From an archaeon (GTDB taxonomy: Archaea > Iainarchaeota > Iainarchaeia > Iainarchaeales > 1-14-0-10-31-34), in the NCBI GenBank assembly GCA_043815885.1, contig JBDRIL010000029.1:3249-67248 (forward strand): a stretch of 64,000 nt of DNA, in the 5' to 3' direction. Position numbers and translations under genes: made by a program. Shown here piece by piece: positions 6,107 to 61,973 of this stretch. Each line of letters opens with the position of its first letter. Position 1 is the stretch's first letter. The notes under the pieces were generated by a model, which saw only the letters and a list, made by a program, of their open reading frames with translations, was not told the origin of the DNA and did not search any database.

Positions 6107-9100
6107 TCACTGCACTACCTTGCCTGTAATTGCATCAATTCTCGCTTTTCTTTCCTTTCCATTTTCTTCCAGTGAAACGTAATAGAACGGCCTGTAAACC
6201 AGACTCACTTTTTTCACTATCACTGTCTTCCACATTTTCTGGAGAGACTTAATTACTTTTTCTTCAGAGAAATTAGCTTCGACTATTGAGACATTCTTTA
6301 ATTCAACCAAAGGCAATTCATTCAATGAATCAATCAATGAATGCCTTGAGTCAGGAGGAAGTTCTATCTCTCTGTTAAGGAAATAGGAGACCTTTCCCTC
6401 AGAACTAACTCTATCAACCAAACCCTTTTCAGTTAAATTGCCTAGAACTTTTTTTATTCTTGTTTCAGAGTAATTCTCTTCCTCCAGTTTTTCCTCCATT
6501 CCTTTCCTTTTAATTAAGCCAGCAAATACCTCTAACTGCTCTTCATCCAATTCCATTACCTTATTGAAGCCTCTTGATTCAATGAATTCATCATTCTTTA
6601 CGTGAATGAATTCCCCTGTAATGGCATTAATGAAACACGTAGTTGCAATGAATTCCTTGCTTTTGTTGAAGTCATTGAATGAAATCTTATAGACTGGCTC
6701 AAAAATAAGTTGAAGTTGCTTTACCTGCTCTTCCTTTCCAACCAACCCAAACCTTTTCCTTTTCCTTACCTTATTAACGATTTTCTTTGCTTCCTCTTCC
6801 TTTAATCTTAATGGAAATGAAAGAATGCTTTCCCTCTCTACCTTCTTTTCTTCCTGCTCTTTTATTCTTTCCTCTGCTTTTTCCTGTGCTTCCTTTATTA
6901 CTTCCTCTTTTTCCTTTAATTTTTCTGCAAGAACGACTCTGTCTGGTTCAATTACTGCCTTTCTTTCCTCCAATAAATCCAGTACAGAGGAAAGCATTGC
7001 CTTTGCCTTGTACTTGCTGTTCAATGAATTAATCAATTGATTGATTTTATCCATTCCTATTTCTCCATCCCTTCCTAATTCCCTGAACGCAATTTCCATT
7101 GCAAGGTTTTCCACCTGTTCCTTGCTCAGGCTTTTAACCAAAGAAATGGTTTCTGCATCCCTTCCCTCGTGCTGCGACATTCTTGGGCGGATACTCATCA
7201 CAAACGCTCTGCTTGTTTCCTCTCTCCTGTCACCAGTGAGAGCATAACCTATTGGAAGGCTTCTAATGAAATTGCTTTTCTTGTATTGGTGGGGAATGAT
7301 TGTAGGAATTCTCTTGTAAATAGCCTTTATGTCGTCATCAAAAACCAGTTTATGAGTCAAAAGAATATCCAATTGAGACAACACCCTTGTATCAATTGCT
7401 GATGGCTGCTGTGTAGCAAAAACTATACTGCAACCAGGCCTTCTTCCCTGCTTAACATACTCCACCAACGCATTTGTGGCAGGAGTATTTACATTTCCTG
7501 AAGGAATTAAGGTGTGGGCTTCATCAATAAACATCCAGGTAGGAGGAATATCTGTTTCAAGCAATGCATTCATTGAAGTAGCCTTCATTTTATTCGCTGA
7601 TTCTCTTCTAGTGGAAAGCTTTCTCGCTGAAAGAATTCTCCTTGCAAGAATTCCAATAACCAATGCAGTAACATTTGCTTCAAGAAAACTTGTATCCAAT
7701 ACAGTCAACTGGTTTTCTCTGGAGAGTTCCCCCAAAGGAGTTCCCTTTTCATCAAAGATCCCCCAGGACTTCGCTGCCTCAAACCTGCTGACTAACGCCC
7801 TAATGGAATCCTGTTTGTAGCCTCTTTCCCTGCTATTCAATTCTTCATCTGTCTCCAGACAGTTTATCATGCCATCCAGAGAAAAACCCTGCTTGTTTGC
7901 CTTAACGTATTTTCCTTCAATTGTCTTGTATCCATGCTCTACTTTTTTAATTACCTTATCCAAAAGCAAGCCGCTTGGACCAAATCTCTCCATTCCAAAA
8001 GTCAAACACCAGTCCTCTGAGGTAAGCAGTGAAGGCTGAATTGAAAAGGTTGCATCATAAGTGTTTTTTGGAGTTTCATTCTTCATTCCTGCTGGAATGA
8101 ATACCTTAAGGTTATCAAGGCCTTGAGGTTCTAACCCCCACTCAATCAATGCACTTAATTCCTTTTCTTCCTTGTTTGCATACTTCATGCTCCAGAACAC
8201 TCCAATAGGATCAATTACTACTATTCCAACATTGCTGTTTTTCAGTGCCAGTTCCTCTGCAATCACTCCAAGAACGTATGAATTATGAACAATTATATCG
8301 TTTGCAACAAAATTATAGTATTCTGGAACAGAAATATCATATACATCTTCTCCAGGAATTTCTTTTAACTCAGTTACCTCATCCCAAAAAATATCTGATT
8401 CTGCTATCATCTGTACTCCTTTATTCCCTTCAATCTGAGCCATTCTCAGTAACTTTTTTCTGGAAGGCGCGTAAGTTAAGGAACTATGGACGTAGTTTGG
8501 ATTATAACCCATTGCTCTCGAAGCAGCCTTACAATTTTTTGGTCTATAAATGCCCCAGATTTCTTTCGGAATAGTGTCTACATTTGGATTTCTTGAAACC
8601 TCAAGCATGTCTTTTATTGCATTTTCCTGTTTTAGTTCTTTTACCCCAAAAAAACCGATTTCCTGAATGAATCTGATTACACTTTCAGATGAAATAACTA
8701 ATTCAAAGGAATTGAATTTTTTCTCGTTACATTTGACTTTTTTGAACCTAAGCCTAGAGAGTATCCCAAATCTAATCAAAAGATTCTGCACTTGCCTTAT
8801 CATTTTATCTGAAGAACTAGAATAAGAAACCTGCCAATTATTTTTTCTTCTACTTATCGGATGAATACTGCCGTCACAACTGAAAAGCCTGTTCAGGAAT
8901 AATGCCAGCTGTTCTTTAGGAAGTTTTAATACTTCTTCTGGAATAACTTTCTCCTTTGTTAGCTTTCCATATAATCCAATGCTTTCAAACCATTTTGCCA
9001 GAGAACTCTTTTGCGCGACAATAAACCCTTTGCTTGTAAATTGCCCTTTTTTGTTTCTAACAACATTTGTTAAATCAATTGGTTTCTTTTTTTGTGCAAC

Positions 9101-10288
9101 TCTATAGCATCCGATTTTACTATGCACTTCTATTCTTAGGTTTTCATCAAATTCCTTTATGCTTTGGGAGAAATCTTCAAGAATTTTTTTGTCTTCGTTA
9201 CTGAATAAAACAAATGCATTTCTTAGATGCCCTTCCGCAATAAAGTAAGCCAATAACTTAATATCACACTCTCTCATCCTAGTGTTGCCAAATACATTAA
9301 GTGCCCTTGGCACTGCTATCCTGTCTTTTGCTTTTAGTTCTTGGGTTTGCATCCATCCATTAATTGTTAGGAGAGGATGTTCGGGAGTCAATTTTATTTC
9401 CCTTCCACTCCTTAACCGCAAATAAAGCAATTTGCTCACTTTTCTCTTATAAAATCCTTCTTTTTTCAATGGAACTACTTTTAGTTCATGGTTTAATCCA
9501 AGAACCCGTTTATCATTGTTTTCTAGTTCCTTTATAGGAATAACCGAGCCATCTTCCAAGGTTATCAATGAATCGCCAGTAAGGCATTTTCCACTCCCAC
9601 GAGCACCGCAAACAAACACTACATGAGGATTCAGTCCGTCAAGAAAAACCTTTTTTTTATTGTATCCCTCTTCCTCCAGCCTTCCAATCAATAATGCTGC
9701 ATCAGATCCATAATTAAGGAAAACTGATTTCTTTCTTCCAATGAATACAGATTCATTTTTCTCGTCCTCCAGAAATTGCAGAGGCATTGAATTTGCTGGA
9801 ACTTCTTCCACAAATTTTTCTTCTGGTTCAGGAGCGCCTTCCATTTCACTTATTGTTTCCCCGCGCTCTTCCTTTTCCTCTTCAACTTCTTCCTCTATTT
9901 CCTTTGTTGCAGACTTCAAAGCCTTTCTCAGAATGAGTTTCTTTAATTCATTTTTTGGAGGCAATTCCTTCTTCAATTCCTCCTCTGGTTCTTCAATGTT
10001 TTCCTCTTCTGCTTCCTCGTTTTCTTCCAATTCAATTTCCTTTTCAATTGACTTGTTTTCTTTTTTTTCCTTTGCGCCAATGCTTTTCTCAAAAGCTTCA
10101 GCTTTTGCGCCACTGCTTTTTTCAAAAGCGGTGTTTTCTTTTTCTGGCTTTATTGTCTTAATGATTTCCTCTACATGTTTTTCCTTTTTCCCGTCAAATA
10201 CCTCGTCAAATATATCCACGTCCTCCTTTACCCTGGATTTCTGTACTCTCTCTTCTGGAGAGAGTTCCCTTGGTTTTTCTTCATTCAT
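6107..10288 (-). CDS. HerA/FtsK-superfamily (DUF87-like) P-loop ATPase with an acidic low-complexity N-terminus and an intein inside Walker A
   Basis: Extein Walker A is GARGSGK|S (reconstituted across the intein). Walker B is MFIDEAH. HerA-like motif TQQPSAIDTRVLSQLDILLTHKL. The N-terminal ~220 aa are an E/K-rich linker. Confidence 0.75.
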   Translation of the reverse strand: MNEEKPRELSPEERVQKSRVKEDVDIFDEVFDGKKEKHVEEIIKTIKPEKENTAFEKSSGAKAEAFEKSIGAKEKKENKSIEKEIELEENEEAEEENIEEPEEELKKELPPKNELKKLILRKALKSATKEIEEEVEEEKEERGETISEMEGAPEPEEKFVEEVPANSMPLQFLEDEKNESVFIGRKKSVFLNYGSDAALLIGRLEEEGYNKKKVFLDGLNPHVVFVCGARGSGKCLTGDSLITLEDGSVIPIKELENNDKRVLGLNHELKVVPLKKEGFYKRKVSKLLYLRLRSGREIKLTPEHPLLTINGWMQTQELKAKDRIAVPRALNVFGNTRMRECDIKLLAYFIAEGHLRNAFVLFSNEDKKILEDFSQSIKEFDENLRIEVHSKIGCYRVAQKKKPIDLTNVVRNKKGQFTSKGFIVAQKSSLAKWFESIGLYGKLTKEKVIPEEVLKLPKEQLALFLNRLFSCDGSIHPISRRKNNWQVSYSSSSDKMIRQVQNLLIRFGILSRLRFKKVKCNEKKFNSFELVISSESVIRFIQEIGFFGVKELKQENAIKDMLEVSRNPNVDTIPKEIWGIYRPKNCKAASRAMGYNPNYVHSSLTYAPSRKKLLRMAQIEGNKGVQMIAESDIFWDEVTELKEIPGEDVYDISVPEYYNFVANDIIVHNSYVLGVIAEELALKNSNVGIVVIDPIGVFWSMKYANKEEKELSALIEWGLEPQGLDNLKVFIPAGMKNETPKNTYDATFSIQPSLLTSEDWCLTFGMERFGPSGLLLDKVIKKVEHGYKTIEGKYVKANKQGFSLDGMINCLETDEELNSRERGYKQDSIRALVSRFEAAKSWGIFDEKGTPLGELSRENQLTVLDTSFLEANVTALVIGILARRILSARKLSTRRESANKMKATSMNALLETDIPPTWMFIDEAHTLIPSGNVNTPATNALVEYVKQGRRPGCSIVFATQQPSAIDTRVLSQLDILLTHKLVFDDDIKAIYKRIPTIIPHQYKKSNFIRSLPIGYALTGDRREETSRAFVMSIRPRMSQHEGRDAETISLVKSLSKEQVENLAMEIAFRELGRDGEIGMDKINQLINSLNSKYKAKAMLSSVLDLLEERKAVIEPDRVVLAEKLKEKEEVIKEAQEKAEERIKEQEEKKVERESILSFPLRLKEEEAKKIVNKVRKRKRFGLVGKEEQVKQLQLIFEPVYKISFNDFNKSKEFIATTCFINAITGEFIHVKNDEFIESRGFNKVMELDEEQLEVFAGLIKRKGMEEKLEEENYSETRIKKVLGNLTEKGLVDRVSSEGKVSYFLNREIELPPDSRHSLIDSLNELPLVELKNVSIVEANFSEEKVIKSLQKMWKTVIVKKVSLVYRPFYYVSLEENGKERKARIDAITGKVVQ
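8282..9586 (-). mobile_element. intein (435 aa) with LAGLIDADG homing-endonuclease domain, inserted in the P-loop of the HerA-like ATPase
   Basis: Begins CLTGDSLITLEDG right after GARGSGK. LAGLIDADG blocks LLAYFIAEGH and LALFLNRLFSCDGS. Ends NDIIVHN, followed by Ser+1. Coordinates were derived by codon counting. Confidence 0.85.
10103..10138. repeat. 36-nt imperfect-hairpin repeat (TTTTGCGCCACTGCTTTTTTCAAAAGCGGTGTYTTC), in-frame within the HerA-like gene; a degenerate tandem copy lies at ~10071-10102
   Basis: Near-identical copies lie in the P0 gene at 27369-27404 and 27534-27570. On the coding (minus) strand it encodes TAFEKSSGAK. Confidence 0.8.
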
Positions 10289-10815: not shown

Positions 10816-10862
10816 ACTGCGTTTTAAATTTAATTCTACTAAAATTATATTAATGGTTTTAT

Positions 10863-10936
10863 GGGCCGGTAGCACAACCTGGTAATGCGCTCGGTTCGCA
10901 TCCGAGAGAATTCGGGTTCAAATCCCGACCGGTCCA
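10863..10936 (+). tRNA. tRNA-Ala (anticodon CGC)
   Basis: Hand-folded cloverleaf: acceptor GGGCCGG/CCGGTCC with a G3:U70 pair (the Ala identity element); anticodon loop TTCGCAT; T-loop TTCAAAT; discriminator A. No intron. Confidence 0.85.
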
Positions 10937-10949
10937 TTTGGTGAAAAAA

Positions 10950-14525: not shown

Positions 14526-14720
14526 GCAGGGATGGCGGAGCGGTTTAACGCACCAGCCTTGAGCTGCCCCTTCTTTTCTTTTTCTAAAAGAAAAGAAGCG
14601 GTAAGTTGCCGGAAGAAAAGAAAAAATTAATTGCCCAAAAAGAAAGAAAGGATGGCTTCTTTAATTGCACAAGCGAGCTGGCGTCCGAAAGGACTCGGGA
14701 GTTCGAATCTCCCTCCCTGC
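14526..14720 (+). tRNA. tRNA-Ser (anticodon UGA), class II, with a 111-nt intron at canonical position 37/38 (14564-14674)
   Basis: Acceptor GCAGGGA/TCCCTGC, 3-bp D-stem GCG/CGC, anticodon stem CCAGC/GCTGG split by the intron, loop CTTGAG|A, long variable arm CGTCCGAAAGGACTC, T-arm GGGAG-TTCGAAT-CTCCC, discriminator G. Confidence 0.8.
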
Positions 14721-14846
14721 GTATCAGAACCTAGCGGTTCCGATACCTCCCTTACGGAAGGATATCTTTTCCTTTTCGCCAGCCTTTCAGAAAAAGGCTG
14801 TCAGATAGCTTCTTTAAAAAAGGCTTTGCATAAAAAAGTGATAGAA

Positions 14847-16375: not shown

Positions 16376-16516
16376 GCAGGGATGGCGGAGCGGTTTAACG
16401 CACCAGCTTGGAGCCGAACCCTTTTTTCTTTCCCGAAAGAAAAAGGGATAATTATTATTGTTTGACAAATAGCTGGCGTCCGAAAGGACTCGGGAGTTCG
16501 AATCTCCCTCCCTGCG
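16376..16516 (+). tRNA. tRNA-Ser (anticodon GGA), class II, with a 57-nt intron at 37/38 (16414-16470)
   Basis: 5' half and T/acceptor arms identical to the 14526 copy. The anticodon loop is TTGGAG|A instead of CTTGAG|A. Confidence 0.8.
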
Positions 16517-16640
16517 TATCAGAAAAACTACGTTTTTCCGATACCTTTTCCTTTTCGCCAGCCTTTTAGAAAAAGGCTGTCCGATACCCCCCTTACGGAG
16601 GATGCCTTCCTTAAAAAGCAGGCGCGCAAAAAAGTGAGAA
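16517..16640. repeat. duplicated tRNA-Ser 3' flank (hairpin CGCCAGCCTTTYAGAAAAAGGCTG, YCCGATACC, CCCTTACGGARGGAT modules), copy 2
   Basis: The same modules occur at 14721-14846 after the first tRNA-Ser, in rearranged order. Both copies end in AAAAAAGTGAnA(R)AAATGA and then a gene start. Confidence 0.7.
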
Positions 16641-17134
16641 AAATGAGTGAATTGAAGATTAATAGTTTGAAGATAGAGAACCCTGAAACAAACGAAATAA
16701 TTATCGGGCAAGGAAACTTTACAGTGAAAACAATTGAGGACTTTTATAATGCATTGGTTAGCGCTGCCCCGGAAATAGAGTTTGGAGTGGGAATGAATGA
16801 AGCAAAGCCAAAGCTGACAAGAGTGAATGGAAACAATAAAGAATTAATTCAGAGAGCAGGAGAAACCTGCAAGAAGATTGCAGCAGGGCATGTATTCGTT
16901 ATTTACTTCAAAAAAGCTTTTCCGATTCACGTATTGAATGCAGTTAAAGCACTTCCAACAGTTTGCTGCATTTACTGCGCTACATCCAATGAACTGGAAT
17001 TAATAATGGCAGAAACAGGGCTAGGGAAAAGTGTAATAGGGGTAGTTGATGGAACAGCAGCAGAAAAAATAGAGAACGAGGAAGAAAAAAAGCATAGAAT
17101 TGAATTATTGAAGAAGCTGGGTTTCAGGAAATGA
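16634..17134 (+). CDS. conserved hypothetical protein (possibly adenosine-specific-kinase-like family)
   Basis: 166 aa, no low complexity. The family assignment is from memory only. Confidence 0.3.
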   Translation: MRKMSELKINSLKIENPETNEIIIGQGNFTVKTIEDFYNALVSAAPEIEFGVGMNEAKPKLTRVNGNNKELIQRAGETCKKIAAGHVFVIYFKKAFPIHVLNAVKALPTVCCIYCATSNELELIMAETGLGKSVIGVVDGTAAEKIENEEEKKHRIELLKKLGFRK

Positions 17135-17141
17135 ATTCAAT

Positions 17142-17310
17142 GCGGCTATGGTCTAGTGGCAGGATTCAAGCTTCCCAACAACCGCAAATCGGTTGACGCT
17201 TAAAGCGTCAAGGGATTTCGCTTTGCTTCAATCCCTTATTAGGTTTTACATAAACTTTAAATGCGGTGGAGGAATAGCTTGCGACCCGGGTTCAAATCCC
17301 GGTAGCCGCA
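17142..17310 (+). tRNA. tRNA-Gly (anticodon CCC) with a 98-nt intron at 37/38 (17178-17275); an alternative Trp(CCA) reading is less likely
   Basis: Acceptor GCGGCTA/TAGCCGC (C2:G71, G3:C70), U8, D-arm GTCT-AGTGGCA-GGAT, anticodon stem CAAGC/GCTTG split by the intron, loop TTCCCA|A, T-arm CCGGG-TTCAAAT-CCCGG, discriminator A. The intron contains a 9-bp perfect hairpin TTGACGCTT/AAGCGTCAA. Confidence 0.65.
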
Positions 17311-17369
17311 TTAGATCAGGATACGTTTATATATTTTTGTATATATACATATTTATACAAGTGATTTAA

Positions 17370-17651
17370 ATGGTTTTGACTAAAACTTTGGAGAAAGGAG
17401 TTCTGCATTACCCCACTCTTAAAACAGTGTTAGCTGTTGAAGATGTTTTGAAAAATTCCAAAGGTCTTTTGAACAGAGAAGAGATTAAAGAAAGACTCCC
17501 TACAAAAATTCACCATCAGACTCTTAACCTTATTCTTGAATACTTAGAGGAAAGCGGTAAAATATTTATTGGAAAAAAAGGCATTCTCTGGACCTACAAT
17601 GAAAGCCCTAAATTCAAAAAGCTCTTGGAAAAAAGCATCCAAGTGAGATGA
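17370..17651 (+). CDS. small wHTH-like protein, putative antitoxin/regulator partner of the downstream RelE-like ORF
   Basis: 93 aa. Its 4-nt overlap (ATGA) with the next ORF suggests translational coupling. Confidence 0.4.
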   Translation: MVLTKTLEKGVLHYPTLKTVLAVEDVLKNSKGLLNREEIKERLPTKIHHQTLNLILEYLEESGKIFIGKKGILWTYNESPKFKKLLEKSIQVR

Positions 17652-18037
17652 TGGCAAAAGAAAAGTTGAGAAAGGAAATCAAAGTATCTTTTAGTCCAGA
17701 ATTTGATGAAGAATACAGAAAGTTGTTAAAAGAAGTTGTAGAGGACAGGGAAAGGGGCATTGAAAATTCATTTAACATTCAGTTGCTAAAAGCAATTGAC
17801 AGAACAATTAGTTTACTTAAAATACAGTCAGACTATGGAATCCACATTCCAAAAAACAGGATTCCAAGAGAATTTACTGAGAAATATGGAATCAACAACC
17901 TGTGGAAAGTAGACCTTCCAAGCTCTTGGAGGTTGTGCTATACATTGAAAACCAGTAGAATAGAAATACTAACCATTCTCTTAGAATTCATAAACCATAA
18001 GAGATACAATAAATTGTTTGGATACAAAAAGAAATAA
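17648..18037 (+). CDS. RelE/ParE-family toxin-like protein
   Basis: C-terminal NNLWKVDLPSSWRLCYTLKTSRIEILTILLEFINHKRY resembles the RelE/ParE core (WK/YRL-IY...ILRIGHRK pattern). N-terminal IKVSFSPEFDEEYRKL resembles RelE's first strand and helix. Confidence 0.5.
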   Translation: MMAKEKLRKEIKVSFSPEFDEEYRKLLKEVVEDRERGIENSFNIQLLKAIDRTISLLKIQSDYGIHIPKNRIPREFTEKYGINNLWKVDLPSSWRLCYTLKTSRIEILTILLEFINHKRYNKLFGYKKK

Positions 18038-18044
18038 GTCCGCG

Positions 18045-18061
18045 TCCCGGTAGCCGCATTA
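18045..18061. repeat. 17-bp direct repeat TCCCGGTAGCCGCATTA, duplicating the 3' end of tRNA-Gly (17297-17313)
   Basis: An exact 17-nt match lies 731 bp downstream of the tRNA, bracketing the two-gene cassette. This is an att-like arrangement. Confidence 0.8.
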
Positions 18062-18065
18062 AAAA

Positions 18066-19124
18066 TCACTGGCCATTGGCTTCCAATTCAATGATTTCGT
18101 TTATTTTTTGGAGAATGCATTTGTTTCCGGGATTTATTTCGGATTCCATTAATTTTTGCCTGTAGGATTCTTCTTTTTCAAAGAATTCTTCTAGGGAAGA
18201 AATGGAATGAGTTTCTTGCACTGAACCAAAACCGAGTTTTTGAATCATTGAGCCATTATAGTATCTTTCGGAGAAGGCCTTTGAACTGCACACGTAAAGA
18301 GGTTTTTTCAGGAAAACTGATTCTGCGAGAGTGCTTTGACCTCCATGGGTTAGAACTGCACTGCATTCCAGCAGGTCTTTTTCGAATTCTTTTTCACTCA
18401 TTCCCTTGAATACAAGATTGCCGGAATTAATTTCTTTTTCTGTCCCGTAAATAATGAATTTCTTTTCAGGGAATCTATTAAGGAGCGGGAGAAGGGCAGT
18501 TAATTCCTCTTCCATAAAATACACTACGTAATAGTCTTTTTTCTTTGGATTGTTTTTAAAGAAGTAATTTCTTACAATTGGATTAAAGAAGAAATCATTT
18601 TTATTGCAGGAGGAAGGATGAATAAAGGAAGTGATGAGGAAGTAATCTGATTCAATGAATGCATTAATAATCGGTTTATCGAGAATGTGGAAGGTTATCT
18701 TTTGATTGAAATTCATTGGAAATTTGATGTAATTCATTGAGTGCATTACTGAAAGGGTTACTACTGGCAGCCTGAATAATTTTCCTATGTAAACCCCGTT
18801 TACATCGAAATCAGAGACAATTAAATCAGGCTTGAATTTTCGGACTAATTTAATTAATTTCACCATATTGGAGGCAGCAATATAGGGGACTTTTGGAACA
18901 TTGTAGGCAAAGGTCCTGAACCGCTTAAGCCTTCCATTCCTGTAAACCAGATTAAACCAGTTAATTTTTTCATTGTAATGGAATTTCTTCTGGAGGTAAT
19001 CATGCGCTTCCCCGGAAGAAACAACAAATACCTTGTGTTCCTTTATTAATCCCTCTATTAATTGGCTGCTTCTTGTAGCATGACCTAAACCAACACCGCA
19101 TACAGTGAACAAAATTCTAGCCAT
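18066..19124 (-). CDS. GT1/GT28-family (MurG/UGT-like) glycosyltransferase
   Basis: N-terminal MARILFTVCGVGLGHATRS resembles the MurG/MGT G-loop; C-terminal THGGQSTLAESV donor-binding motif. Confidence 0.7.
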   Translation of the reverse strand: MARILFTVCGVGLGHATRSSQLIEGLIKEHKVFVVSSGEAHDYLQKKFHYNEKINWFNLVYRNGRLKRFRTFAYNVPKVPYIAASNMVKLIKLVRKFKPDLIVSDFDVNGVYIGKLFRLPVVTLSVMHSMNYIKFPMNFNQKITFHILDKPIINAFIESDYFLITSFIHPSSCNKNDFFFNPIVRNYFFKNNPKKKDYYVVYFMEEELTALLPLLNRFPEKKFIIYGTEKEINSGNLVFKGMSEKEFEKDLLECSAVLTHGGQSTLAESVFLKKPLYVCSSKAFSERYYNGSMIQKLGFGSVQETHSISSLEEFFEKEESYRQKLMESEINPGNKCILQKINEIIELEANGQ

Positions 19125-19131
19125 TTCTTTA

Positions 19132-19950
19132 TCACTTAATTAATTCATTCAATACATTAAATGGAGCAGTGAACTGGACTGAGGAAGGGTTAATCATTAC
19201 TTTTACATTGGAAAAATAAATGGTTAAAGGAGTGAAAGAAGTCTTTGATCTTTCTTCAATCAAATAAATTAATTTGTCTGCTGACTTAAACGGAAGAGAA
19301 AGGTTGTTGGCTTTTGGATTTAAATTGAATTCGCTTGCTGTCTTCTCCAGGAATTCTTTATCGCTTGATTCAAGCAGGAACTCCTCAATATTCATTTTTT
19401 CTGCAATCAATTTAATCTTTTTAAGGTTATCACTGTTAAACTCTAAGTTCAATGAATCATTGAAGCTAAGCTCCTTCAATGATTGGAGTTGCTCGGAAAA
19501 AACCTTATTCAGGTAATTCAAGTGCTTTATCCTCTTATCCAGTTTTGTCTTCAATAAATCAAGTTCAGAAAGAGAAAATTCAGCTGAATTTCTCGCCAGC
19601 TTCAGTAAATCATTGTCATTCTTTGACCTCTCAATCAGTATCTGCATTTTTTCCACTATTGAAGGGATTTCCTCCACGCTTGACTTGGATTGAATTAACT
19701 GATTCAATTTAATCACCAGCTTGTTCTTCATTTCACGGTTTATTTCTGAAGTGCCTTTATCAGTAATAAAAAAATTGTTTTCCCTTCTGTTCACTAAACC
19801 AAAAGAAGTTGCTTCCTTCAGGAACCTTGAAAGAGTGGCGCGGGCAGAATTAACTGAATTATACCCAGATGCAATCTTTCCAAGCAAGGCATTATAGGAG
19901 ATGCCCTGATTCTGCTTGATTATTAACAAAATTGAATTTTTAGTGGTCAC
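19132..19950 (-). CDS. hypothetical protein with an N-terminal wHTH-like domain and coiled-coil
   Basis: 272 aa; N-terminal LLIIKQNQGISYNALLGKIASGYNSVNSARATLSRFLKEATSFGLV resembles a winged helix. Confidence 0.35.
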   Translation of the reverse strand: MTTKNSILLIIKQNQGISYNALLGKIASGYNSVNSARATLSRFLKEATSFGLVNRRENNFFITDKGTSEINREMKNKLVIKLNQLIQSKSSVEEIPSIVEKMQILIERSKNDNDLLKLARNSAEFSLSELDLLKTKLDKRIKHLNYLNKVFSEQLQSLKELSFNDSLNLEFNSDNLKKIKLIAEKMNIEEFLLESSDKEFLEKTASEFNLNPKANNLSLPFKSADKLIYLIEERSKTSFTPLTIYFSNVKVMINPSSVQFTAPFNVLNELIK

Positions 19951-19989
19951 TGTTAATAAGGAAGTATTTAAATAATAAAAACCTTTCTT

Positions 19990-20565
19990 TTAGGGCAACC
20001 AAGAATTATTTTTCCTGTAAAAAATTATTAAAGAAACAGCCAATAATACAATCAACAAAGATAAATGATTTGCTTCAGGAAAGCCTGGAGTTCTCTTCAC
20101 TGCATTAGTCCAGATGGTTTTTCTTGAATTATCATACAAATGCTCTTCTGTTATGCCTTCTGATTCATCCAAGTAAGCTTCAGCTACAACGTAATAATTT
20201 TCGATTTCATCCAACTCAAAAGTCAATACAGTCTTATCAAATACATGAGTTTTTTCTAATGTTGCTCCTGCTCCAATAAGTTCTGCATCAAAAGATTCTT
20301 CAAATTCCTCCCCGCCAATAGGAAAACCTTTTTTATCAGCAATATAGAAATTCACGTCAACCAATCTTTCAACCGCATCGTAATTCCTTATATATGCAGT
20401 CGCAGACAGAGACGAATCTGGGCCTCTGACAGACGGATCAACTACAACCTTCTTCACTGCAATAACATTGCCTGCAGGCGCATCGCTATTGACGAAACCA
20501 ATAACTGCAAATAAAATTAAAAATAAAATTATTATTTTTTTCATTTCTTTTCCTGCCAAGCTCAA
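19990..20565 (-). CDS. secreted protein with signal peptide and a PGF-CTERM-like C-terminal anchor
   Basis: N-terminal hydrophobic signal (IIILFLILFAVIGFVNS). The C-terminus is TPGFPEANHLSLLIVLLAVSLIIFYRKNN, a PGF tripeptide then a TM helix then basic residues. Confidence 0.5.
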   Translation of the reverse strand: MSLAGKEMKKIIILFLILFAVIGFVNSDAPAGNVIAVKKVVVDPSVRGPDSSLSATAYIRNYDAVERLVDVNFYIADKKGFPIGGEEFEESFDAELIGAGATLEKTHVFDKTVLTFELDEIENYYVVAEAYLDESEGITEEHLYDNSRKTIWTNAVKRTPGFPEANHLSLLIVLLAVSLIIFYRKNNSWLP

Positions 20566-20706
20566 TTAATATTTCCCATTATAAAAAAGCCCGTTTTAGT
20601 TATTAATTCTTTCGATTTTATAATAATTTTTAAACACAAGGCAGTTTTTTGCGAAAGAAATAAAAACCTAAATTGCCTTTTAAGTACTAATAAAGGAAAT
20701 GATAGT

Positions 20707-21510
20707 ATGATTGCACCTTTGCTGAATTCAATTAAATTAATGGTTTCAAAGCCATTCTTTATAGTCATAGCCTTAATTGTTGCACTGATAAACAGCTTTG
20801 TATTGTTTTTTTTCCAGGAAACATTATTCGAGTTCATCCTTTCATTAATGGATGTGAATGCCTTTCCAACCAATAACCTGTTAATACTTCCATTCCAGCT
20901 TGTTTCAATTTACTTCAATGAATTACTGATACTGTTGCTTGTATTGTTTGTATCAGTATTATTGAATGTATTTCTTTTCTTTGCTTTCGCGGATTACGTT
21001 GGAGGAATCAAAAAAAAGAAGGCTTCTTTCGGGGCTTCACTTGGGTATGCAATCAAGAGCCTTTTTGAACAAATAAAGTTAGTGGTGTTTTTTGTTGTTC
21101 TTGTTGCCTTTGGTTTCCTTGTGCTTTGGATGTTTTTTTTACTCAGTGTCTACACTGTTTTTGGCGGGATACTGCTGATTATAGCAATGCTGTTATGCAT
21201 CTATCTGGTAATAAAATTCATTTTCACTCCGGCAATAATGGCAACAGAAAAAATAAAGTTAAAGGAATCATTGAAGAAAAGCTATGAGTTTTCAGGCAAG
21301 CATTTCTTTGAAATAATTCTCCTGCTAATCGTTTTATTCATAGTAAATGCATTAGTAGAAGTAGGAATAGGATACTACATAGTTTTAGCGCAACCGGAAG
21401 AAAACTTTTTTCTGGTAATAGACTTCATCATTACACTGCTGTTAACAGCCTACTTTACCCTTTTGTTCCCTGTCTACTATCAATTGAGAGAAAAGAATGC
21501 AGGCCTCTGA
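20707..21510 (+). CDS. polytopic integral membrane protein (hypothetical)
   Basis: 267 aa, about 7 predicted TM helices; ends 14 nt before the SMC-like gene. Confidence 0.5.
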   Translation: MIAPLLNSIKLMVSKPFFIVIALIVALINSFVLFFFQETLFEFILSLMDVNAFPTNNLLILPFQLVSIYFNELLILLLVLFVSVLLNVFLFFAFADYVGGIKKKKASFGASLGYAIKSLFEQIKLVVFFVVLVAFGFLVLWMFFLLSVYTVFGGILLIIAMLLCIYLVIKFIFTPAIMATEKIKLKESLKKSYEFSGKHFFEIILLLIVLFIVNALVEVGIGYYIVLAQPEENFFLVIDFIITLLLTAYFTLLFPVYYQLREKNAGL

Positions 21511-60851: not shown

Positions 60852-61973
60852 TTATTGATTTAAGCTTTTCTCTAATAGGCTTAACCACTTATTTCTTTCA
60901 AGCTTTAAATCAATCCCTGCTTTCTCTGAAGGCGTCATTCCGATTGTTGAATTTCTTTTAATGAAGTTATGGTATAATCTGTGTCCGTTAGCCCATTCTT
61001 GTGTTGTCTTGTTTGACTTGAATCCTCTTCGCACTTTATCGAATTCCCTGAATTCATTATGATACCTTTCTACAAGATTGTTGTTTATTAAGTGCCTTCT
61101 TCCAACAATACTGATATGCTTTGTTCTCTTTGACTTGGTTCTGAATTCTCTCTTGATTGCTTTTGGATAGCTTCCAAGAGAATCAGTAATAATGAATTTA
61201 GGTTCTTCTGCTTTAGGATTGTTTTCTTTTACTTCAATGAAATGCTCTTGAGCATCCTTAATTTTTCTTCCTTCTGTGATTGTTGAAGCTAAGACAAATC
61301 TTGTTTTATGGTCTATTGAATTCCAAGCATAAACCCATTTTCCTTTGGATTTAACTAATTGTTCATCAGTATGAATTTGTCCGCTTAATTCAGGAGTGAA
61401 TTTCTTAGTGTATTCATCCATTTTTGCAGTGAACTTATTAATCCATCTTCGGATTGTATCAAAATGAATTCTGATGTTATAGAATTGGTAAACAGTATCA
61501 GAAATATCTCTCAATGATAAGCCTTTGAAGTATAAATCCATTGTTAAAGTAATGATTTTTGGGTTTGCTTTAACTCTTTTCAATGGCTCTAAAACAAATA
61601 GTTTTTTACAGGCTCTGCATTGCCATCTTTGTTTTATTCCTGCACTTGTCTTTCTTTTCCCGTATTTAACTATTAGGTCTGAATAACAGTGAGGGCATTC
61701 CTGTTTATTTGCATTGAATTCTTCCTCTATATTGAAGTCATCTAATTCTGCCTTGTTTTTCATTTTTAAGTAAAATTTGATTGAGTGAATGTGTTTGCAT
61801 TCAGTTTTCCTGTATTTGAAGTCAGGGCATTCACAACTCCATAGGTTAGCGTTCTGCACTTTATATTTTCCATTTCCAGATTGAGAAGGAATAATCCATT
61901 CATTCTCATTAACCATTAAAGGAGTATCGCCTTTAGACAAAATCGCTAAACCCCTAATTTCTCTTTCATTCAT
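60852..61973 (-). CDS. IS6-family-like DDE transposase with N-terminal SWIM-type zinc finger
   Basis: CECPDFKYRKTECKHIHS (CxCxnCxH) zinc finger. DDE region resembles IS6/IS26 (WVYAWNSIDHKTRF..., FIITDSLGSYPKAI, RRHLINNNLVERYHNEFRE, NGHRLYHNFIKRNSTIG). Confidence 0.75.
   Translation of the reverse strand: MNEREIRGLAILSKGDTPLMVNENEWIIPSQSGNGKYKVQNANLWSCECPDFKYRKTECKHIHSIKFYLKMKNKAELDDFNIEEEFNANKQECPHCYSDLIVKYGKRKTSAGIKQRWQCRACKKLFVLEPLKRVKANPKIITLTMDLYFKGLSLRDISDTVYQFYNIRIHFDTIRRWINKFTAKMDEYTKKFTPELSGQIHTDEQLVKSKGKWVYAWNSIDHKTRFVLASTITEGRKIKDAQEHFIEVKENNPKAEEPKFIITDSLGSYPKAIKREFRTKSKRTKHISIVGRRHLINNNLVERYHNEFREFDKVRRGFKSNKTTQEWANGHRLYHNFIKRNSTIGMTPSEKAGIDLKLERNKWLSLLEKSLNQ

Follow-up and report, generated by a model that had tools for sequence, protein, structure and literature searches.

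What placed a self-contained pair of genes, bounded on both sides by the same 17 bp, at the 3′ end of an archaeal tRNA gene? The question is posed by a 64,000-nucleotide stretch of a 67.8-kb contig from an uncultured iainarchaeon, a member of the DPANN group (JBDRIL010000029.1, positions 3,249–67,248 of the forward strand; assembly GCA_043815885.1), hereafter the window, whose own coordinates are used throughout. In it, tRNA-Gly(CCC) is followed by a 731-bp cassette resembling a toxin–antitoxin (TA) operon, beyond which the last bases of the tRNA gene recur. An earlier note, based on the letters alone, had read this arrangement as the classic attachment (att) signature, attL and attR, of site-specific integration. 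Our favoured reading, which we hold at a probability of about 0.6, is that the cassette is a non-autonomous mobile addiction module, inserted at the tRNA-Gly(CCC) 3′ end with a 17-bp duplication of its target.

A related contig carries the empty site

The 17-mer TCCCGGTAGCCGCATTA is present as exact copies at 17297–17313 and 18045–18061, spaced 748 bp apart, as the earlier note had stated; no third match exists in the window even with up to three mismatches, and none of 100 dinucleotide shuffles held two or more matches. It begins at the last T-loop base and takes in the 3′ halves of both the T stem and the acceptor stem, the discriminator and three genomic bases, TTA. Because it runs on into genomic TTA and not into CCA, it represents a duplication at the DNA level and no copy of a mature tRNA, which also rules out a retro-element or tRNA-primer origin.

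The evidence for insertion comes from a Logan contig (L006, from SRR14699980) that is 86–90% identical to the window and whose adenosine-kinase protein is 90% identical. It was obtained by protein search followed by contig look-up; a scan of genome contigs with the window adenosine kinase found no relative. Positions 20–720 of L006 align with window 16613–17313, covering the kinase and tRNA-Gly (here with a 96-nt intron) and ending in ...GCATTA; positions 704–736 align with window 18045–18077, that is, the 17-mer plus AAAATCACTGGCCATT; and positions 728–2405 align with window 19117–20804. L006 has a single copy of the 17-mer, TCCCGGTGGCCGCATTA (one G/A difference), followed directly by the flank that stands after the second copy in the window (18062–18077). 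Since L006 has one 17-mer and the same downstream flank, it is the empty site in a related genome, and the 731 bp are a genuine insertion. Two more distant contigs, L008 with the kinase–tRNA-Gly arrangement and L007 with the kinase, also lack the gene pair there, and with these outgroups a gain in the window lineage is the parsimonious course. An exact loss through the repeats in L006 would still presuppose an earlier insertion.

The features of the locus are as follows.
17142–17177, plus strand: tRNA-Gly(CCC) exon 1, anticodon CCC at 17174–17176 (ARAGORN with introns; sequence read)
17178–17275, plus strand: 98-nt tRNA intron at the canonical position 37/38, strongly structured, relaxed bulge-helix-bulge (ARAGORN; fold prediction)
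17276–17310, plus strand: tRNA-Gly(CCC) exon 2 through discriminator A (ARAGORN intron mode)
17297–17313, plus strand: left 17-bp copy, 14 nt of tRNA 3′ end plus TTA, completing the functional tRNA (repeat search)
17314–18044, plus strand: inserted 731-bp cassette, comprising promoter, two genes and a 7-bp tail, not in L006 (L006 alignment)
17320–17369, plus strand: cassette promoter with putative operator and reiterated TATA-like boxes (sequence read; putative function)
17370–17651, plus strand: gene 1, 93 aa, winged-helix DNA-binding protein with C-terminal helix, putative autorepressor/antitoxin (AlphaFold, Foldseek, conservation)
17648–18037, plus strand: gene 2, 129 aa (128 aa in GenBank), RelE/ParE-fold protein, putative toxin (AlphaFold, Foldseek, conservation)
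18045–18061, plus strand: right 17-bp copy, a non-functional tRNA 3′-end fragment (repeat search)
18062–18077, plus strand: original downstream flank of the tRNA, AAAATCACTGGCCATT, pushed away by the insertion (joined to the tRNA 3′ end in L006)

A second difference from L006 lies next to the cassette. A glycosyltransferase gene (18066–19124, minus strand, PF13528), absent from L006, is bracketed by AAAATCACTGGCCATT (18062–18077) and AAAATTCTAGCCATT (19111–19125), repeats that contain both its start and its stop codon. The gene was either deleted in L006 through a short repeat or is a second insertion whose duplication has since diverged.

The cassette is laid out like a type II toxin–antitoxin operon

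Between the repeats lie an AT-rich promoter of 56 bp, two open reading frames (ORFs) that overlap by 4 bp (ATGA), and a tail of 7 bp; the GenBank locus tags of the pair are ABIE23_02975/02980. The description of this interval in the earlier note as a palindromic AT-rich promoter with overlapping ORFs of 93 and 129 aa was accurate, as was its view of a minimal element devoid of integrase, and the small, co-directional, overlapping genes have the anatomy of a type II TA operon. At the 71 related loci with both genes, the overlap is −4 or −1 in most. Upstream of gene 1, TTTATATA lies at 17326–17333 and the perfect palindrome GTATATATAC at 17339–17348. An alignment of 27 cassette upstream regions shows that this region corresponds to a family-wide motif, (C)GAAAGATATTTATATAAGTTTATATA, at which conservation begins; by its sequence, the promoter appears to be of the B recognition element (BRE)/TATA type.

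A subset of loci (L035, L113, L127 and L148) has a conserved upstream extension of ~160 bp, at about −215 to −53 from gene 1, with two hairpins, TCCCATAC...GTGTGGGA and CTGCG TC CGCAG. It has no Rfam match and could be a small RNA or hitch-hiked flank.

Gene 1 was modelled by AlphaFold (AF2) with a mean confidence (pLDDT) of 80 as a winged helix followed at the C-terminus by an additional helix (residues 80–91), and its Foldseek matches are winged-helix proteins of the PadR/LmrR, MarR, IclR and ScpB types. Twelve residues are invariant across 89 sequences, and the invariant positions cluster on the recognition helix (H49–N53) and the wing (G71, W74), a pattern that fits the family-wide promoter/operator motif.

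Gene 2 diverges from known families. The window protein has no Pfam match at E ≤ 5, and neither of the two window proteins gave anything usable from Pfam, NCBIfam or PADLOC. Among 20 gene 2 homologues, 11 matched Pfam ParE_like (best 19.7 bits, cut-off 24.4) and eight matched ParE_toxin (best 21.8 bits, cut-off 23), and no member tested reached the gathering score of any RelE/ParE family. The AF2 model (pLDDT 79, predicted template-modelling score 0.71) has a beta-alpha-alpha-beta-beta-beta topology, and all of the top 50 Foldseek matches in the PDB are RelE/ParE-superfamily toxins (YoeB, PrpT, RelE, ParE, HigB2, YafQ), with probabilities up to 0.99 and target-normalised TM scores of 0.6–0.69 at E-values of only ~1e-2. 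A profile search of PDB sequences returned noise only, and hhalign against Escherichia coli YoeB gave a probability of 9.6%. On the predicted structure, gene 2 has a RelE/ParE fold that lies below Pfam thresholds. The RelE/ParE-like core proposed in the earlier note is in this sense upheld at the level of fold and not at that of Pfam score; likewise, family searches with both ORFs recover sub-threshold ParE_like and ParE_toxin matches for gene 2 homologues and no usable match for the window proteins themselves.

Conservation suggests what gene 2 might do. In 89 distinct members G64, R95 and Y98 are invariant, and W86, W94, H117, Y120, F124 and Y126 are 97–98% conserved. YoeB has R65, H83 and Y84, and the weak profile alignment sets WRLCY of gene 2 on HRLVY of YoeB, pairing R95 with R65. 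Because Arg95, His117 and Tyr120 are conserved, we infer a ribosome-dependent mRNA endonuclease of the RelE/YoeB type in preference to a gyrase poison of the ParE type.

Cassette ends define a discrete, probably mobile unit dispersed among DPANN archaea

Relatives of gene 1 occur in 344 species-representative genomes of woese-, pace-, nano-, aenigm-, micr-, iain- and nanohaloarchaeal lineages and in more than 551 metagenome stretches, and a profile search with gene 2 retrieved 781 clusters at 50% identity. As far as seen, the family is restricted to DPANN archaea. Our first set of 89 loci combined 80 loci from species genomes with the window and earlier fetches; gene 2 lies directly downstream of gene 1 at 71 of these, and at 57 of 80 metagenome loci. 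When 117 loci were grouped by any similarity among flanking proteins, they fell into 75 context groups. Both flanks were common to nine locus pairs only, several of which are one contig recovered from both collections (100% identical).

Many cassette pairs are 85–92% identical in nucleotide sequence over ~650–720 bp, and this homology breaks off ~53 bp before the ATG and, at the other end, between −7 and +9 relative to the stop codon, despite the availability of 500-bp flanks. The window cassette aligns to others solely over 17320–18040, inside the repeat-bounded block at 17314–18044. From these alignments, the unit bounded by the 17-mers appears to be the mobile unit of the family, running from promoter edge to stop codon. 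The earlier note had left open a decayed integrated element or a tiny hitch-hiking cassette; since over 100 related cassettes have this block as their common unit, the second of these is favoured over decay from a larger element. Some genomes hold two copies (L038/L039, L053/L067, L062/L065). Both genes are under strong purifying selection, with a ratio of nonsynonymous to synonymous substitution rates (dN/dS) of ~0.05 over 88 pairs.

The closest protein relatives of the window pair, L001–L005, lie at other loci, where neither a tRNA nor a flanking repeat is present and the neighbours are housekeeping genes (RNase P p30, rpl15e). A conserved Rpp30/rpl15e context for the family was considered and rejected, being true of four loci only. 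According to the earlier note, finding the same two genes in relatives without the repeat would make the repeat a chance match. The genes do occur so in L001–L005; since these are at other loci, their lack of a repeat has no such consequence for the window.

Several loci depart from the standard arrangement. In L160 (1868–2667) a gene 1 homologue precedes an unrelated 160-aa partner without a Pfam match; L066 (3001–3258) keeps gene 1 and has lost gene 2, both of which are present at the same site in L157; and in L091 the gene 2 homologue is inverted relative to gene 1. The related genomes of L102 and L160 (~75% nucleotide identity) have one gene neighbourhood in common and differ in the junction that holds the cassette, with the order A-cassette-B-C in L102 and A-X-B-...-cassette-C in L160; a duplication of ~21–29 bp in L102 includes the gene A stop codon and the gene B start codon.

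Local sequence is duplicated around a minority of other cassettes

Exact direct repeats of at least 16 bp bracket 10 of 69 cassettes of the first locus set. Shifted windows of the same geometry at the same loci yielded such repeats in 8 of 1127 cases (Fisher p = 6e-9), and mismatched-locus controls gave no repeat above 15 bp in 2000 trials. Overall, ~15–20% of loci carry direct duplications of local sequence abutting the cassette ends. In gapped comparisons, the left copy ends 36–90 bp upstream of the ATG, at the 5′ promoter edge, and the right copy in most cases starts at −10 to +21 of the stop codon; at several loci the stop codon of gene 2 itself comes from the duplicated target. Metagenome loci repeat the pattern (L161, L114, L157, L106, L102, L139 and others).

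The flanking repeats of ~20 related cassettes each differ in sequence and length and are copied from local sequence. Duplicated targets are gene boundaries, and both neighbouring genes stay intact; in L075, for instance, an overlapping stop/start ATGA is duplicated. At two-copy loci the lengths are 16, 17, 19, 21–23, 29–37, 41, 57, 106 and about 124 bp. Family-wide lengths also include 69 and 76 bp, and some of the longer repeats have third copies in the locus. L084, L069 and L042, first counted as long target duplications, were removed from the clean set because their repeats are multi-copy in the locus. Transfer RNA ends account for only two of the ~20 duplicated targets, namely the window and L034, where 22 bp of the 3′ end of tRNA-Ser(TGA) are duplicated in the same geometry. 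Loci free of repeats may have lost theirs by decay, have repeats too short for detection, or never have had any.

Searches for mobility machinery and the repeat arrays

The element offers no room for an integrase: none lies inside the 731 bp, and the flanking genes encode adenosine kinase and a glycosyltransferase. Terminal inverted repeats were not found family-wide (10.87 of 16 positions observed, 10.86 of 16 in controls); the best inverted pair near the window cassette ends is 23 nt long and 78% matched, in AT-rich DNA. No RNA gene lay beside the cassettes in 20 loci checked. The flanking repeats showed no attC-like folding (z = −0.4 to −1.0 against shuffles), the 7-bp tail of the window cassette holds no attC-like element, and no integron integrase came to light. 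Carriage by a virus or plasmid was considered unlikely, with one relative among 2.9 million viral contigs (IMG/VR).

The only transposase gene in the window is of the IS6 type and lies 43 kb from the cassette (60852–61973, minus strand; DDE_Tnp_IS240, E = 9.6e-20); its product has a zinc-ribbon/SWIM-like N-terminus, and small ORFs without family matches flank the gene.

Three loci carry arrays. In L082 (2831–4910; Ca. Nanoarchaeia, JAUYJU010000033.1) three host-derived repeats of 76–106 bp, 94–97% identical, alternate with different cargo: repeat, the winged helix-turn-helix (wHTH)/RelE-like pair, repeat, a PIN_2 (VapC-like) gene whose 86-aa partner is encoded on the other strand, repeat, DUF4258. 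A small hydrophobic ORF starts within this repeat, which has no attC-like fold. L042 (1–2477) likewise has three flanking repeats, with a DUF3800 gene in the second interval, and in L063 (851–3366) a remnant of the 3′ end of gene 2 stands before the third copy, suggestive of tandem amplification in the past. Possible origins of such arrays are repeated use of a fragile site, unequal crossing-over, or Campbell-type re-insertion of circles carrying one repeat. Since the repeats of some arrays also bound TA-type cassettes of other kinds, the insertion route is probably not tied to the wHTH/RelE-like cassette, and this lowers the chance that the cassette's own proteins catalyse insertion.

How the cassette may have inserted

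On the reading we favour, insertion would have duplicated 17 bp of the target, for example by fill-in of a staggered break around the incoming DNA, with variable spacing of the strand breaks and no tRNA-specific integrase. With 17 bp duplicated, the tRNA gene stays intact and the old 3′ fragment now lies downstream of the cassette. The enzymology of insertion is probably host-encoded and not specific to the cassette. The pair would then act as a type II TA (addiction) module, in which gene 1 may bind the reiterated TATA-like operator as an autorepressor and may neutralise gene 2 through its C-terminal helix. Addiction, together with the sparing of both neighbouring genes, would account for the persistence of such insertions in streamlined genomes.

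Several points weigh against this account. A clean empty-site comparison exists for the window only: a second one was sought among the examined loci and not found, L102/L160 and L157/L066 being informative and not clean, so that target duplication elsewhere is inferred from geometry. No detectable flanking repeat is present at 80–85% of loci. Two tRNA ends among ~20 targets exceed a rough expectation of 1.3% (p about 0.03), and the 17 bp duplicated in the window span precisely the tRNA part favoured by integrases. The 17-bp duplication in the window also falls under the 30-bp cut-off of Furuta et al. The search for recombinase domains found none in the unassigned window ORFs that were tested, and it reached neither every window ORF nor the rest of the genome. 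Conservation is higher in gene 1 than in gene 2, an unusual trait in an antitoxin. Finally, L082, L063 and L042 hold three repeat copies with different cassettes between them, an arrangement that recombination at a reused site would explain no less well than would separate insertions at staggered cuts.

How, then, do other explanations fare? Site-specific integration would make the 17-mers attL and attR, with the tRNA-Gly 3′ end serving as attP in the cassette or in a larger ancestor, and with a tyrosine recombinase supplied in cis (and lost) or in trans. The repeat does run from the T-loop through the 3′ end and 3 nt beyond, where the att cores of archaeal and bacterial tRNA genes usually lie (PMC2853133), the duplicated tRNA-Ser(TGA) end in L034 has the same geometry, and an empty site exists in L006. 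Against this, no integrase or fragment of one lies in or beside the element, which leaves just 56 bp and 7 bp outside its ORFs, and none was found among the tested unassigned window ORFs; the repeat-bounded block is a shared family unit, so the same decay would be needed many times; and repeats at the other loci all differ, vary in length and lie mostly outside tRNAs. A length of 17–22 bp is also short for archaeal att sites. A fixed attP × attB exchange is disfavoured because related elements share neither an att core nor a target. Related cassettes lie in at least 75 contexts, and such flanking repeats as they have are local, differ at every locus and measure 16 to ~124 bp; the attL/attR interpretation of the earlier note is not supported. 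Some weight remains with it, as the geometry of both tRNA cases is that of classic att sites and the 17-bp repeat is short, and we regard it as quite unlikely. Recombination of the Campbell type would have a circle, released by recombination between the repeats around an earlier insertion and made of the cassette and one host-derived repeat, re-insert at the matching sequence of a naive genome by homologous or microhomology-mediated recombination. This would restore the direct repeats, which would be the means of spread and not a scar of de novo insertion. In its favour, one host-derived repeat lies between cassettes of different kinds in the arrays of L082 and L042 (copies 85–97% identical), and at many loci the two copies have diverged (85–97% identical), as if one arm were donor-derived; the glycosyltransferase gene polymorphism further suggests that short-repeat-mediated deletion may be active in the lineage. 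It leaves unexplained the first insertion at each of many distinct sites, however, and exact identities of 16–22 bp without extension (window, L075, L034) are very short for homologous recombination; a search of viral contigs found no circular junction and no plasmid or viral carrier. This route is unlikely to account for the locus.

Two further explanations concern the function of the pair and the reality of the duplication. The genes could be a domesticated, DPANN-specific regulator and effector with a cellular role, scattered by the poor synteny of DPANN genomes; this bears on function only and is compatible with mobility. The dN/dS of ~0.05 on both genes, the unusual conservation of gene 1 with its 12 invariant residues in 89 sequences, the wide distribution of the pair and its place among housekeeping genes in L001–L005 (RNase P p30, rpl15e) all point this way, and a precedent exists in the unusually conserved TA-like genes that DPANN maintain in housekeeping settings (PMC6393860). 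Against it, the close relative L006 lacks the pair at the tRNA-Gly site, target duplications flank the cassettes far more often than they flank control windows, and cassette homology stops abruptly at both ends. Some genomes also carry the pair twice, L066 no longer has gene 2 at the site orthologous to that of L157, and in L160 gene 1 stands beside a different partner. Domestication is doubtful to us. It is, by comparison, scarcely credible that the 17-bp repeat pre-existed by chance and that L006 lost the segment by deletion between the copies. Such a deletion would also leave one copy, as in L006; but an exact 17-bp match was unexpected (0 of 100 shuffles), the second copy is precisely the tRNA 3′ end beside the original flank of that tRNA, the outgroups lack the pair at the site, and a deletion in L006 would not remove the need for an insertion to explain the repeat itself.

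Insertion with target duplication, as we favour it, lends itself to a wider and distinctly speculative proposal that we think improbable: DPANN archaea might acquire genes without a recombinase by a process inserting any DNA with long, variable target duplications, which wHTH/RelE-like pairs and VapBC, DUF4258 and DUF3800 cassettes would exploit in integrase-free, integron-like arrays. In a bolder version, the winged helix of the cassette (with its invariant His/Tyr) and a break-promoting toxin might themselves trigger insertion.

The interrupted tRNA and other genes of the window

The tRNA-Gly(CCC) gene, which both default ARAGORN and Rfam miss, is recovered by the intron mode of ARAGORN with a 98-nt intron, in agreement with the earlier note; the intron lies at 37/38. 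The intron has 9-nt inverted arms, TTGACGCTT and AAGCGTCAA, with one base between them, and the pre-tRNA has a predicted minimum free energy of −61.5 kcal/mol (z = −4.3 against shuffles). The ACCGCA/TGCGGT pairing of the intron ends is present, and this 6-bp inner helix forms in the predicted fold together with a 4-bp anticodon–intron helix. The latter is flanked by bulges of ~5 nt, in place of the two 3-nt bulges of a strict bulge-helix-bulge, and for that reason the motif is relaxed, not strict: the position and both helices agree with the bulge-helix-bulge substrate proposed in the earlier note, the bulges being larger than in the strict form. Homologous introns in relatives measure 96 nt in L006 and 52 nt in L008.

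Two other intron-bearing tRNA genes of the window are found by the intron mode of ARAGORN alone, tRNA-Ala(TGC) with a 112-nt intron (14526–14721) and tRNA-Ser(GGA) with a 57-nt intron (16376–16516). With tRNA-Ala(CGC) at 10862–10937, the three intron-bearing genes make four tRNAs in 7 kb. For annotation, the lessons are that default tools miss intron-bearing tRNAs such as these three, and that a tRNA-end repeat bounding foreign DNA is by itself no proof of an integrase.

Elsewhere in the window, a gene for a 1393-aa HerA-like helicase (6107–10288, minus strand; DUF87/HerA) is split by an intein that carries a LAGLIDADG homing-endonuclease domain (Intein_splicing 1.3e-24, LAGLIDADG_3 3.3e-21).

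Comparison with known systems

What the locus adds is twofold. It brings to light a previously unannotated family of ~125-aa RelE/ParE-fold proteins and their partner, widespread in poorly understood DPANN lineages. It also presents a TA-like operon as the entire mobile unit, from promoter edge to stop codon; type II TA loci are usually called mobile because plasmids, prophages, integrons and transposons carry them.

As an operon, the cassette resembles type II TA systems with RelE/ParE-superfamily toxins (RelBE, YefM–YoeB, ParDE, HigBA) in placing a small DNA-binding gene first with a 4-bp overlap, in the RelE/ParE fold of gene 2, and in having its own promoter with a palindromic, reiterated putative operator; with YoeB it shares a conserved Arg in the WRLxY strand and His/Tyr near the C-terminus. 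It differs in that no member reaches a Pfam gathering score and the window proteins have no NCBIfam or PADLOC match, in the size of gene 2 (~125 aa with an extra helical insert, whereas RelE/ParE toxins have ~85–95 aa), in a PadR/MarR-like winged helix where those antitoxins are ribbon-helix-helix, Phd/YefM or HTH-XRE proteins, in a partner more conserved than the toxin-like protein, and in its confinement, as far as seen, to DPANN archaea.

As an insertion, it is similar to the tRNA-targeting integrative elements of archaea and bacteria and to their att-bounded derivatives that lack an integrase, akin to cis-mobilizable elements (CIMEs), in that a tRNA 3′-end repeat bounds the insert, the tRNA is intact and the empty site is known. 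Unlike them, it has no integrase in cis, no common att core or target, and repeats of variable length; to our knowledge, it is far smaller than any described integrative element. DNA transposons and miniature inverted-repeat transposable elements differ from the cassette, which lacks terminal inverted repeats and has target duplications of variable length. Direct repeats of variable length (8–514 bp) do arise on insertion of the insertion sequences IS1634 and IS1549, for which there is no mechanistic model, and the IS1634 family is frequent in Euryarchaeota (PMC2266710); the cassette shares the variable repeats with them and has neither their DDE transposase nor their terminal inverted repeats. 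TA cassettes of chromosomal (super)integrons bear their own promoters and stand in either orientation in arrays between similar repeats (PMC2654758). Ours is likewise a self-contained TA-like operon moving as a cassette, compare the L082 array, but its repeats are host-derived, differ between genomes and lack the attC hairpin fold, and no integron integrase was seen.

The closest precedent is "insertion with long target duplication" of restriction–modification (RM) systems, described by Furuta, Abe & Kobayashi 2010 and, reportedly, by Nobusato et al. 2000. It has been reported from bacteria only, where RM units without mobility genes are flanked by long, variable duplications that arise by an unknown mechanism (PMC2853133). 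Furuta et al. used a criterion of >30 bp to separate long target duplications from integrase cores, and no archaeal case survived their screen (PMC2853133); a 2013 review ascribes insertion with target duplication to RM, not TA, systems (PMC3874152). Like those units, the cassette is of the addiction type, has no linked mobility gene and no inverted repeats, and is bracketed by two copies, of case-dependent length, of a sequence found once in the empty-site genome; in both, the target commonly includes the 3′ end of an adjacent gene or tRNA, and the repeats can support amplification. Unlike those bacterial units, it is a 0.7-kb TA-like pair in DPANN archaea, and its duplications, at 16 to ~124 bp (17 bp in the window), are shorter. 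Insertion with variable duplication is already known from bacterial RM systems; new here are its occurrence in DPANN archaea, a TA-type module as cargo, and dozens of independent sites. That it recurs in archaea with another type of addiction module suggests a general insertion pathway, and the family offers many natural junctions from which this pathway could be worked out.

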